In this document: positions 24,187-34,393 of the stretch, piece by piece
Layout: each line of letters opens with the position of its first letter
Position numbering within the stretch: position 1 is the first letter of the stretch
From: a virus
Lineage: Duplodnaviria > Caudoviricetes
Virus record (IMG/VR): IMGVR_UViG_3300046170_000302
Length of the DNA: 64,000 nt
Reading direction: 5' to 3' (one strand)
Made by a program: the position numbers and the translations under genes
Notes under the pieces: generated by a model
What the model was told of the DNA's origin: nothing
What the model saw: the letters and a program-made list of their open reading frames with translations, nothing else
The model's database searches: none

Positions 24187-24229
24187 AACCAGTTACTTGT
24201 GTTGGTTTCAACATAAGTGTTTATACTTA

Positions 24230-24349
24230 CTCCCCCTAAACCAAGACCTATAGGGAGTTTAAAAACGTCTTTAATACCTGTATCTAAGGGTGATACAGGA
24301 ATAGTAAAACCATCATTTCCCTGATGATCTTACTTTTAAGTACATTACA
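24230..24349 (+). ncRNA. PhotoRC-II-like RNA motif in the psbA 5' UTR
   Basis: CTCCC/GGGAG, CCTGTATC/GATACAGG and ATCAT/ATGAT hairpins upstream of the ATG, as recalled for cyanophage psbA leaders. Confidence 0.65.
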
Positions 24350-33819: not shown

Positions 33820-33849
33820 TTGACATAAATAGTGTAGAAGTGTTATAAT
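33820..33849 (+). promoter_or_regulatory. Dual early/late promoter of the riboswitch operon
   Basis: TTGACA-18-TG.TATAAT with embedded ATAAATA (33825-33831). Confidence 0.75.
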
Positions 33850-33855
33850 AACACT

Positions 33856-33902
33856 GTCGTTCATCAGAGGTAACTCTGACGCAAGTAAGTTGACTCGGAA
33901 CG
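33856..33902 (+). ncRNA. Glutamine-riboswitch-like aptamer 1 (glnA/Downstream-peptide class)
   Basis: CGTTCA-[TCAGAG gtaa CTCTGA]-CGCAAGTA...GGAACG; P1 CGTTC/GAACG. Confidence 0.75.
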
Positions 33903-33905
33903 GAG

Positions 33906-34088
33906 CGTTCATCCTATGGTTGATTTCTTTTTATATACAACACTCAGTTGTTCTGATGCCGATAGCATTATGCTACGGATGAGGAGTAATGATGATCTTA
34001 ACGCATCAAGTTAGGATTGAATTGGTGGAGGTTCTAAAAGAATCTACACCAGAGTGTCCATGGGACGCAAAAGGCAACTGAAGGAACG
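33906..34088 (+). ncRNA. Glutamine-riboswitch-like aptamer 2 with ~138-nt ORF-containing P2 loop
   Basis: CGTTCA-[TCCTATGG...CCATGGGA]-CGCAA...GAAGGAACG. Confidence 0.6.
33916..34081 (+). CDS. ~54-aa protein nested in aptamer 2; apparent +1 indel near 34000 (as written stops at 34014)
   Basis: MVDFFLYTTLSCSDADSIMLRMRS...IELVEVLKESTPECPWDAKGN*; GGAG SD at 33902-33905. Confidence 0.55.
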
Positions 34089-34122
34089 GGGCCTAAAAAT
34101 CCAACTACTTCAGGAGTATCAA

Positions 34123-34257
34123 ATGAAAGTCACGTATCGTGGTGTGTCGTATGACACAGTTGAGTATCAGAACAGACCCCAAGTTACCAAAAAAGTAACT
34201 GAAGTCTATCGTGGTATCAATCACACCGAAACTGTAAAAGTGGAGGTATCAAAATGA
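34123..34257 (+). CDS. DUF4278 family protein (IF17/GifB N-terminal-like)
   Basis: MKVTYRGVSY...EVYRGI, two YRG motifs; SD CAGGAG. Confidence 0.8.
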   Translation: MKVTYRGVSYDTVEYQNRPQVTKKVTEVYRGINHTETVKVEVSK

Positions 34258-34361
34258 ATATACTTGCCATCGAGCAAAGAAAGATTCTCAAGAAAAAAGC
34301 TATCAAGGTAGCTCAACTTGAGTTGACTAAGAAAACACTTGTTTGTTCTAACAACAAGTGA
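34254..34361 (+). CDS. 35-aa basic peptide
   Basis: MNILAIEQRKILKKKAIKVAQLELTKKTLVCSNNK*; ATGA overlap, SD GGAGG. Confidence 0.6.
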   Translation: MNILAIEQRKILKKKAIKVAQLELTKKTLVCSNNK

Positions 34362-34368
34362 TATAATT

Positions 34369-34393
34369 AAGGGAGGTAATACTCCCTTTTTTT
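34369..34393 (+). terminator. Intrinsic terminator closing the riboswitch operon
   Basis: GGGAG-gtaata-CTCCC followed by T7. Confidence 0.8.

Follow-up and report, generated by a model that had tools for sequence, protein, structure and literature searches.

Two sets of glutamine-riboswitch motifs stand in one short leader of a tailed virus (Duplodnaviria; Caudoviricetes; IMG/VR record IMGVR_UViG_3300046170_000302). An earlier note on this DNA had read them as two tandem, possibly interlocked aptamers, the second with a whole ORF in its loop, and the locus raises the question of whether it carries a pair of aptamers standing side by side or one RNA fold closed around a gene. We think it probable that the transcript is a phage-specific, elaborated form of the type-1 (glnA) glutamine riboswitch, with two junctions nested one in another.

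All features lie on the + strand of the window, which is the whole stretch of DNA analysed (64,000 nt). The unit opens with a sigma-70-type promoter at 33820-33849 (TTGACA, an 18-nt spacer with TG, TATAAT), matching at 12 of 12 positions in agreement with the earlier note; a TTGAC..TATAAT pair is also found at the equivalent position in relatives, and from its position the transcript should start at about 33856. The motifs located by the note, CGTTCA at 33858 and 33906, a hairpin at 33864-33879 and GGAACGG at 33897-33903, are all present at these positions. S1 (33858-33863), consisting of CGUUC and a bulged A, is the 5′ strand of the outer P1 and is invariant in 151 unique units. It is followed by H1 (33864-33879; UCAGAG GUAA CUCUGA), the P2 hairpin of the outer aptamer, and by J1 (33880-33887; CGCAAGTA), which joins a CGC linking strand to AAGUA, the 5′ half of a type-1 E-loop, and has no variation in A2. 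The 5′ strand of P3 (33888-33895) has an AGUUG core at 33888-92 and can be extended to AGUUGACU. An inner hairpin, S2:S3 (33897-33911), is built from GGAACG-G (33897-33903) and CGUUCA (33906-33911), pairing GAACG at 33898-33902 with CGUUC at 33906-33910, and the GGAG at 33902-33905, upstream of the nested ATG, falls within it.

The 5′ strand of H2 (33912-33919; UCCUAUGG; TCCTATGG) holds the ATG of the nested gene (33916-33918), and its 3′ strand (34058-34065; CCAUGGGA; CCATGGGA) doubles as codons for a conserved P-W-D. The two strands enclose 138 nt and are followed by CGCAA at 34066, as had been described for a second P2 stem, and CGCAA...GAAGGAACGG is present at 34066-34089. J2 (34066-34079) comprises CGC, an A-rich linker and the 3′ strand of P3 (CAACU, 34075-79, extendable from 34072). 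The segment at 34080-34089 then supplies GAAG (the 3′ half of the E-loop), S4 (GAACG, 34084-88, the 3′ strand of the outer P1) and a closing G at 34089; GAACGG including S4 is invariant across the 151 units and agrees with the Rfam Glutamine consensus GAAGGAACG. A putative expression platform (34078-34116) sets CUGAAG (34078-83) against CUUCAG (34108-13) beside the Shine-Dalgarno sequence (SD) AGGAG (34112-16). The DUF4278 gene, small peptide and terminator of the earlier description were confirmed as well. The DUF4278 (IF17-like) gene (34123-34257) encodes 44 aa and matches Pfam PF14105 with 28.7 bits against a cut-off of 25.3; because of this short length its product lacks the C-terminal part of IF17 that contacts glutamine synthetase. 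The ATG of a 35-aa basic peptide ORF (34254-34361), for which a Pfam search returned zero family matches, overlaps the DUF4278 stop codon (ATGA), and an intrinsic terminator (34369-34388, in the segment 34369-34393) closes the unit.

The gene inside H2 has 54 codons when intact (33916-34081, with the TGA stop at 34079-34081). In the window the distance from ATG to TGA is 166 nt, not a multiple of 3, and two ORF pieces are present, 33916-34014 (32 aa) and 33989-34081 (30 aa), because of a single extra base at 34005. This base is missing from metagenome contigs of three independent runs (X1, X12 and X17), and the X1 contig, which could be the origin of this DNA, is identical to the window sequence apart from it; on the basis of these contigs, a programmed frameshift or a pseudogene behind the split was rejected for the natural population. 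The nested ORF of about 54 aa proposed earlier is therefore absent from the window as such and present in its relatives, with an intact ORF of 53-55 codons in 97/97 other unique loci. Purifying selection is indicated by a median dN/dS of ~0.17 (97 relatives), and the entropies of the three codon positions are 26.6/12.9/43.5. Judged from these substitution patterns, the nested gene is a real, protein-coding gene. It belongs to the family of Syn9 gp197 ('T4-like GC 430'), and zero family matches were found for its protein in a Pfam search. AlphaFold2 predicts a two-helix hairpin (pLDDT 76.6), a generic fold of the kind that matches almost anything. The last six codons and stop of the gene supply the 3′ strand of H2, the CGC, the 3′ strand of P3 and the start of the E-loop. 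The earlier view that an aptamer stem encloses an entire protein-coding ORF is supported; the ORF begins within the 5′ strand, and the 3′ core is built from its final codons and the stop codon.

The fold was derived from an alignment of 98 unique sequences with RNAalifold run without constraints, and pairs were also counted per column. The program returned exactly the five helices of the nested fold. The outer P1 (33858-62 with 34084-88; RNAalifold columns 5-9 with 272-276) is paired in 98/98 sequences and invariant, and the alternative partner of S1 at 33898-902 is likewise complementary in the window. H1 covaries, with 4-5 pair types per position (columns 11-14 with 55-58). The core of P3 (33888-92 with 34075-79) is 99.6% paired, with compensatory changes at two of its 5 bp (G-C to A-U in 5 sequences, C-G to U-A in the window); a 'long class' gains three additional bases on both strands jointly, and S-SSM7 shows a swap from U:A to A:U. 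The AGTTG/CAACT cross-pairing that the earlier note had pointed out is real, covarying as AGTCG/CGACT and AATCG/CGATT in relatives; C.A mismatches of P3 in the S-SSM7 and P-RSM6 types count against the nested fold. The note had named covariation as a check of its P2 stem, and the H2 core (UCCYA:UGGGA) is paired in 98/98 sequences, with both-sided compensatory changes in MED4-213 (UCCUU/AAGGA) and S-RIM8.

These helices could also be connected as a true tandem of cross-linked aptamers, with S1:S2 closing around H1 and S3:S4 around the ORF-bearing H2, an arrangement that we consider rather unlikely. The 33888-92/34075-79 helix would then be a shared P2 in the pseudoknot style of type 2 (Downstream-peptide), yielding a pseudo-symmetric interlocked dimer, and the middle hairpin S2:S3 would be merely the ligand-free alternative; in a variant of this proposal, the RNA toggles between tandem and nested pairings within the switch. 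Both units are indeed ordered as CGUUCA, hairpin, CGC, linker and GGAACGG, and the type-2 structure has GGAACGG between its P2 strands (PMC6698751), the same order as J1, S2 ... J2. Nevertheless, the middle strands pair with each other: S2:S3 appears in unconstrained MFE folds, and at columns 77:92 its pair is G-C in 85 and C-G in 13 sequences and broken in none. In 13 unique sequences the middle strands read GCAACGG and CGTTGA, with no change in the outer CGTTCA and GAACGG. These natural variants thus keep S2:S3 and S1:S4 100% paired, whereas S1:S2 and S3:S4 each gain 13 mismatches (C.C and G.G, respectively), so that both P1 helices of the tandem are broken.

The E-loop argues in the same direction, since its halves are divided between the units, AAGUA in unit 1 only and GAAG in unit 2 only, and the composite alone has both. 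As two self-contained tandem aptamers, the units would each be without half of this type-1 element, and a local P2 or P3 is absent from both units. The nearest-neighbour energy of the nested fold is better than that of the plain tandem fold by 2.1-5.8 kcal/mol, consistent with the unconstrained RNAalifold result; the unconstrained MFE retains S2:S3 as well as H2, with the CUGAAG:CUUCAG helix in addition. Several points still speak for the tandem or against the nested fold. S1:S2 is able to form well ahead of the transcription of S4, and the strict, aptamer-like conservation of S2 and S3 exceeds the needs of a plain hairpin. Unit 2 stands by itself, with no S1, H1 or J1, in some loci (L089-L095, L111), where S3:S4 must pair, else nothing pairs. 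A P1 spanning ~220 nt under translation may seldom form in the cell. Natural variation of S1 and S4 was sought in the 151 unique units and none was found, and the outer P1 is without covariation of its own because S1 and S4 never vary; its preference over S1:S2 comes from one kind of double change, which counts against the nested fold. The GCAACGG/CGTTGA change may have arisen once and then spread by recombination; the A/B type of the leader needs 8 changes on the ORF tree, and the histories of leader and ORF are discordant.

Membership in a known class was assessed with the Rfam models, as the earlier note had suggested for the glnA and Downstream-peptide families. At gathering thresholds zero matches occur in the region, and below threshold only unit 1 is recognized: RF01739 (Glutamine) scores 29.4 bits at 33856-33906, where its gathering score is 35, and relatives reach 21.9-27.4 bits, also below 35. 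RF01704 (Glutamine-II) gives zero matches in the window with E values up to 10, and in relatives it stays at 22.7-29.7 bits, short of its gathering score of 33, with P2 containing non-canonical pairs. The weak matches of unit 1 to both families (22-29 and 23-30 bits) could be taken in favour of the tandem, and their position below both gathering thresholds against it. The composite cannot be scored with the Rfam model because of its insert of ~180-200 nt; its core agrees base for base with canonical single phage aptamers, GACGCAAGTA-P3-GAAGGAACG. Several hallmarks of type 1 are found in it, namely a P1 of CGUUC/GAACG (33858-62/34084-88) with closing G34089, a P2 at 33864-79 directly after CGUUC-A and followed by CGC, and a DUF4278 gene downstream at 34123-34257; the E-loop (AAGUA 33883-87, P3, GAAG 34080-83) is formed by the long-range composite only. 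In the window the strand before GGAACGG is without a local P2 partner such as type 2 has, and two complete, separately folding aptamers are absent. The proposal of a glutamine-riboswitch-derived leader ahead of the DUF4278 gene is supported.

Given the discordant leader and ORF histories, it could also be that no long-range RNA operates here, and that the riboswitch-like halves remain from a shuffling of cassettes among repeated riboswitch leaders, which seems to us very improbable. Conservation would then reflect coding constraint on the C-terminus (..P-W-D-A-N-D) plus a conserved translation start region, with regulation by the 3′ part and its CUGAAG/CUUCAG helix only, or by nothing. Both CGTTCATCC and GGAACGG are direct repeats that could promote recombination, and rearranged loci are known, for example L089, in which CGACTRAAGGAA is partly duplicated. 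Since they sit in codons (W-D-A-x-D), the 3′ strands of H2 and P3 owe part of their constancy to the protein. Yet the non-coding partner strands track synonymous or amino-acid-changing substitutions (AATCG/CGATT, AGTTG/CAACT, UCCUU/AAGGA), the ORF-in-stem design recurs independently in H1 with a covarying stop codon (UCUC/UGAGA versus UCUU/UAAGA), and the design is kept in Synechococcus and Prochlorococcus phages of different genera, with ORF identities as low as ~40%.

According to the nested-riboswitch model that we prefer, the outer junction would be a complete canonical aptamer formed through long-range pairing, with P1 made of CGUUC (33858-62) and GAACG (34084-88), P2 of the hairpin at 33864-79, and a junction strand CGCAAGUA leading to P3 (AGUUG(ACU) 33888-95 with (AGG)CAACU 34072-79) and to GAAG after it. 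The far end of P3 would open into a second, reduced aptamer-like junction, formed by a local hairpin (GAACG/CGUUC, 33898-33910) together with the stem 33912-19/34058-65 around the 54-codon gene.

The likely output of this fold is read from the 3′ end of the unit. The helix of CUGAAG (34078-83) with CUUCAG (34108-13) is seen in MFE folds, and CUUCAG overlaps the SD AGGAG. Its middle pair is G-C in 45, A-U in 37 and G-U in 13 sequences, and CUAAAG is paired with CUUUAG in 41/41. Among independent pairs on the tree, ~5 changes run in the same direction and 0 in opposite directions. A covarying alternative helix beside the DUF4278 SD suggests a glutamine ON switch. Glutamine riboswitches switch DUF4278/IF17 genes on, and the Synechocystis gifB riboswitch follows the ON logic proposed here (PMC6212724). 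Without glutamine, CUGAAG would pair with CUUCAG and hinder the DUF4278 SD; glutamine, if bound as predicted, would stabilise P1, P3 and the E-loop and free this SD, so that DUF4278 and the coupled 35-aa peptide would be switched on. Translation of the nested gene would occur mainly from the open fold, perhaps co-transcriptionally or under low glutamine, and the ribosomes on it would have to unfold the aptamer, while translation termination within CUGAAG would likewise open the downstream site. The earlier note had envisaged an AND/NOT gate; opening of the DUF4278 ribosome site by glutamine or by upstream termination would fit the anatomy at least as well. Our results also raise the possibility, which we put forward tentatively and with more doubt than conviction, of a two-site pseudo-symmetric glutamine sensor that would bear translated genes in its helices on purpose, and in which ribosome traffic through the nested gene(s) and the glutamine occupancy of two nested cores jointly set the fold. 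If so, the nested gene (fold open) and DUF4278 (fold locked) would be under opposite control, DUF4278 would be made upon the glutamine lock or upon ribosome termination in CUGAAG, and the leader would be a natural riboswitch that senses, in the course of infection, a metabolite and also the state of translation.

The arrangement is widespread. It is present in 398 GenBank cyanophage records, of which 200 cover at least 80% of the unit, and in 151-153 unique metagenomic units, and the element was found in many seawater metagenomes of independent studies; by these sequence counts, it is far beyond chance. In Syn9-like phages the H1 hairpin also encloses an ORF, of 66 codons. Searching IMG/VR with the S-SSM7 protein yielded a single locus, and a strict pattern of the junction had no match among 401 sampled cyanobacterial genomes. 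A 16-base junction pattern proved too unspecific, with 120 chance matches in unrelated bacteria, of which none was flanked by riboswitch motifs.

Compared with type 1 (RF01739; gifB, PMC6212724; marine phage loci L166-L245), the leader shares CGUUCA, the P2 hairpin, CGCAAGUA, P3 and GAAGGAACG, precedes a small DUF4278/IF17-like gene, and has an inhibitory helix that overlaps the aptamer and touches the ribosome site, for which ON logic is expected. It differs in that P1 and P3 close across ~180-230 nt rather than locally, that the P3 'loop' is a three-way junction from a second aptamer-like strand set, and that a gene lies inside one of the stems (in Syn9-like phages inside two) and provides aptamer nucleotides through its codons. 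With Glutamine-II (RF01704; PMC6698751) it has in common the CGC linking strand, the CGUUC:GAACG helix with its closing G, GGAACGG directly after a helix strand, and a marine picocyanobacterial setting upstream of DUF4278 peptides; unlike there, no local P2 surrounds GGAACGG, the preceding strand has its sole partner ~180 nt downstream, and an E-loop of the AAGUA/GAAG type, absent from type 2, is present. Like tandem riboswitches, including glnA, the leader has two ligand-site-like cores and an inter-unit helix, whereas its units are inseparable, each without half a junction, and pair across units in a nested manner rather than side by side. The glycine riboswitch is a two-aptamer tandem, and homing-endonuclease ORFs sit in the loops of group I/II introns. 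Tandem glnA RNAs were noted by Weinberg et al. 2010 (PMC2864571), and translated uORFs occur in riboswitch leaders (bioRxiv 10.1101/2022.06.01.494293). Coding sequence is tolerated in an RNA fold in intron loops and in such leaders, and translation competes with structure, as is expected here; in contrast to intron-loop ORFs, the start, last codons and stop of the nested gene belong to a predicted ligand-sensing core, and the RNA around it is a small riboswitch instead of a ribozyme.

No description of a gene-enclosing nested glutamine riboswitch turned up in the literature searched. Riboswitch aptamers are usually regarded as compact, non-coding, local folds, and covariance-model searches assume so; here strands ~200 nt apart appear to make up an aptamer of a well-studied class, with a gene inside a stem and codons that serve as ligand-core nucleotides. 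If this is true, phage matches to glutamine riboswitches that are 'tandem' or below threshold would have been misread, searches for structured RNAs must permit gene-sized inserts, and the leader would offer a natural system for competition between translation and ligand over one RNA fold. At least two small phage proteins would then be under glutamine control, the gp197 family and the DUF4278/IF17-like protein, the latter a candidate inhibitor of host glutamine synthetase. The element occurs in many seawater metagenomes and therefore bears on how cyanophages may sense and manipulate the nitrogen status of their hosts.

The self-contained unit occupies window positions 33820-34393 and opens with a perfect sigma-70-type promoter (33820-33849; TTGACA, 18 nt with TG, TATAAT). 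Its glutamine-riboswitch-like leader carries four CGUUC/GAACG-type strands, S1 to S4: S1 (CGTTCA, 33858) is followed by the 6-bp hairpin H1 (33864-79), J1 (CGCAAGTA and then AGTTG(ACT), the latter at 33888-95), S2 (GGAACGG, 33897-33903) and, two bases 3' of it, S3 (the second CGTTCA, 33906). The 5' strand of stem H2, TCCTATGG (33912-19), includes an ATG at 33916 and pairs across 138 nt with CCATGGGA (34058-65), after which come J2 (CGCAAA and then (AGG)CAACT, the latter at 34072-79), GAAG and S4 (GAACGG, 34084-89). Farther 3' lie CTTCAG adjoining AGGAG (34108-16), a DUF4278 gene (34123-34257; Pfam 28.7 bits versus a cut-off of 25.3), a 35-aa lysine-rich ORF without a Pfam match (34254-34361) and a terminator (34369-88). 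The ATG of this ORF overlaps the DUF4278 stop (ATGA), which suggests translational coupling.

CATAAATA at 33824-33831 resembles the T4-type late promoter motif (TATAAATA) and overlaps the -35 box; relatives carry TTGACTAAATA in its place. Transcription of the unit might be late as well as early. In one metatranscriptome (run X17), a single 624-nt contig covered 33785-34411, closely matching promoter to terminator, at a depth differing from the flanks. This hints at a discrete transcript but no more, since contigs cannot show transcript ends. The window also contains a PhotoRC-II RNA (71 bits) and a five-tRNA-gene cluster (24218-24312 and 1638-2010), consistent with a T4-like cyanomyovirus.

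S1 equals S3 and S2 equals S4 in most sequences, so that their pairing partners are ambiguous: they could form two tandem helices (S1:S2 and S3:S4), as the earlier note had proposed, or an outer P1 (S1:S4) enclosing an S2:S3 hairpin. Natural variants appear to resolve this. In 13 of the 98 unique aligned sequences, S2 reads GCAACGG and S3 reads CGTTGA, while S1 is still CGTTCA and S4 still GAACGG, and the change is always joint (both strands in 17 loci, neither in 226, mixed in 0). The S2:S3 pair is thus kept, as G-C in 85 and C-G in 13 sequences, and S1:S4 is paired in 98/98, whereas each tandem helix suffers 13 mismatches (C.C and G.G). Unconstrained RNAalifold on the same alignment returned exactly S1:S4, H1, J1:J2, S2:S3 and H2, and under ViennaRNA constraints the nested fold had an advantage over the plain tandem fold of 2.1 kcal/mol for the window, 2.5 for the S-ShM2 type and 5.8 for the variant type; both results favour nesting. 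As S1 and S4 are themselves invariant, the support for outer P1 comes from the behaviour of the competing helices. The double change may be a single event that recombination has spread; the ORF tree requires 8 changes for it. The main rival, a type-2-like arrangement in which each unit keeps its own CGUUC:GAACG helix and J1:J2 serves as a shared P2 (PMC6698751), is topologically possible and is possibly an alternative conformer.

The second half of the unit (S3 to S4) also occurs alone at L089-95 and L111, which have it behind another gene and show marks of rearrangement. In L089:391-640, L090, L092, L094 and L095 it (CGTTCA, the ORF-bearing stem and CGC..GGAACG) comes immediately after another CDS; 3' of it lie CGACTAAAGGAA/CGACTGAAGGAA as a partial duplication, then a terminator-like hairpin and a further CGTTCATCCCAT. 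These loci look like products of recombination between the repeated riboswitch strands.

The two long-range pairings of the earlier note were borne out by covariation across relatives. The AGTTG/CAACT cross-pairing, the J1:J2 (P3) helix, is equivalent to AGTCG/CGACT elsewhere through a C-G to U-A change in the window; in five sequences a second core pair has gone from G-C to A-U, and the 5-bp core is paired at 99.6%. In a long class (the window, S-SSM7, P-RSM6, P-SSM7, P-SSM2 and MED4-213), J1 and J2 together gain three additional bases each. The helix then has 8 positions, 6-8 of them paired; its last pair turns from U:A to A:U in S-SSM7, and two symmetrically placed positions repeatedly show C.A mismatches. 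The 5-bp core of H2 (UCCYA:UGGGA) is invariant, each of its 22 one-sided changes is a C to U that retains G.U pairing, and replacement of the conserved Trp codon is accompanied by a matching change in the non-coding 5' strand (UCCUU/AAGGA in MED4-213, UCCU/AGGA in S-RIM8).

The whole-window Rfam scan gave nothing at threshold. S1 to S2 alone matched Glutamine (RF01739) weakly, at 29.4 bits (gathering score 35; E = 3.5e-4 on 801 bases), and this first half remained below threshold throughout (Glutamine 21.9-29.4 bits, Glutamine-II 22.7-29.7 bits). In single phage glutamine aptamers the sequence runs ..ACGTTCATCCC..GGGGACGCAAGTA-[P3 hairpin of 3-5 bp]-GAAGGAACGG.., in agreement with the Rfam consensus. 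In the unit, AAGUA occurs solely after H1 and GAAG solely before S4, and the full type-1 junction is found, base for base, only in the composite S1-H1-CGCAAGUA-[J1...J2]-GAAG-S4. At its distal end P3 opens into S2:S3 and H2, and then a second CGC; this inner junction, which might hold a second glutamine, is a reduced version of the type-1 junction, circularly permuted and without the E-loop. The G after GAACG in S2 is invariant in the alignment, though it lies in a hairpin loop.

The ~54-aa ORF proposed within H2 is intact, at 162-168 nt, in all 97 other unique sequences, while the window copy, at 166 nt from ATG 33916 to TGA 34081, is broken by one surplus base into a 32-aa and a 30-aa piece that differ in frame. 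This base, at 34005, is missing from otherwise 99-100% identical contigs of three runs, two from DNA metagenomes and one from an RNA library; it probably reflects either a mistake in sequencing or assembly or a rare variant carried by this record. Variation falls mostly at third codon positions (entropy 26.6/12.9/43.5) and the median pairwise dN/dS is 0.17, which, with its intactness in relatives, shows the nested gene to be real. Its product matched no Pfam family, its homologue names were uninformative (GenBank hypothetical protein; Syn9 gp197, 'T4-like GC 430'), and AlphaFold2 (54 sequences) predicted a two-helix hairpin (pLDDT 76.6).

H1 also encloses a conserved gene, of the gp196 family (66-67 aa), in Syn9 (L016:354-572), MED4-213 (L289:98-322) and at least 70 IMG/VR loci (L294-L373). 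The Syn9-type start consists of the promoter, ~8 nt and CGTTCA-TCTC-ATG, the ATG lying 4-7 nt after CGTTCA; the ORF ends within the 3' strand, its stop codon just 5' of CGCAAGTA, and the 5' strand covaries with that codon (UGA, UAA, UAG) as UCUC/UGAGA, UCUU/UAAGA and UCC./(UAG)GA. As an independent case, it speaks for gene-bearing stems as a selected feature of these leaders rather than an accident of one insertion. Other long H1 variants (L076:519-570, L097, L098, L120) start TCC-ATG and hold a 9-codon mini-ORF (ATG GTG GTA TTC GTT ATG CAC ATA GCA TAG), which may be a remnant of, or substitute for, a nested gene.

By blastn, 33850-34130 matched 398 phage records, with at least 80% of the unit covered in 200, all from phages of Synechococcus or Prochlorococcus or from marine isolates whose label says merely cyanophage or marine phage. 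IMG/VR scans yielded more than 150 unique units, and near word-for-word copies of the stretch occurred in seawater metagenomes of 17 studies. The junction pattern (CGCAAGTA, 5-9 nt, GGAACGG, 2-6 nt, CGTTCA) was not found among 401 sampled cyanobacterial genomes. The downstream gene is DUF4278 (MxxVTYRG..) in the window and another small gene in many relatives; the latter, of the unrelated family MNTLN(I/L)IKKQI.. ('T4-like GC 937'), likewise lies 3' of canonical single glutamine aptamers, and the two alternate (relatives L001:843-1010, L091, L097; canonical aptamers L176, L199, L216). No description of an ORF inside a glutamine aptamer, or of the nested topology, was found in the literature searched, Ames and Breaker 2011 being outside its reach.

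CUGAAG, formed by the last two J2 bases and GAAG, includes the nested gene's stop codon and is complementary to CUUCAG, which overlaps the downstream gene's Shine-Dalgarno AGGAG. The resulting helix, which occurs in all unconstrained MFE folds, is incompatible with P3 and the E-loop. Its middle pair is G-C in 45, A-U in 37 and G-U in 13 sequences, and CUAAAG is matched by CUUUAG in 41/41 cases (153 units). A tree made from the interior of the ORF gives 21 and 17 changes for the two columns; on branches with good support, independent pairs change in the same direction ~5 times and oppositely 0 times (sign test ~0.06). L012, L013, L017, L044, L060, L119, L122, L124, L126 and Syn9 (L016:770-830) have an extra conserved ~45-nt module (GGGAAAACACGGATC..GAAA..GAGAAGGTTAATTTTC) between GGAACGG and the CUUCAG/Shine-Dalgarno segment.

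ON logic has been shown for Synechocystis gifB and a Prochlorococcus DUF4278 leader (PMC6212724), and the simplest reading of the unit is likewise an ON switch, for which we infer both direction and ligand binding: glutamine would lock the aptamer and free the ribosome site. With its AUG sequestered in H2, and S3 taken up by the hairpin, the nested gene should initiate preferentially before the 3' partner strands are transcribed or with the fold open. Ribosomes finishing this gene would have to unwind H2, P3 and the E-loop, and their termination inside CUGAAG would expose the downstream ribosome site too.
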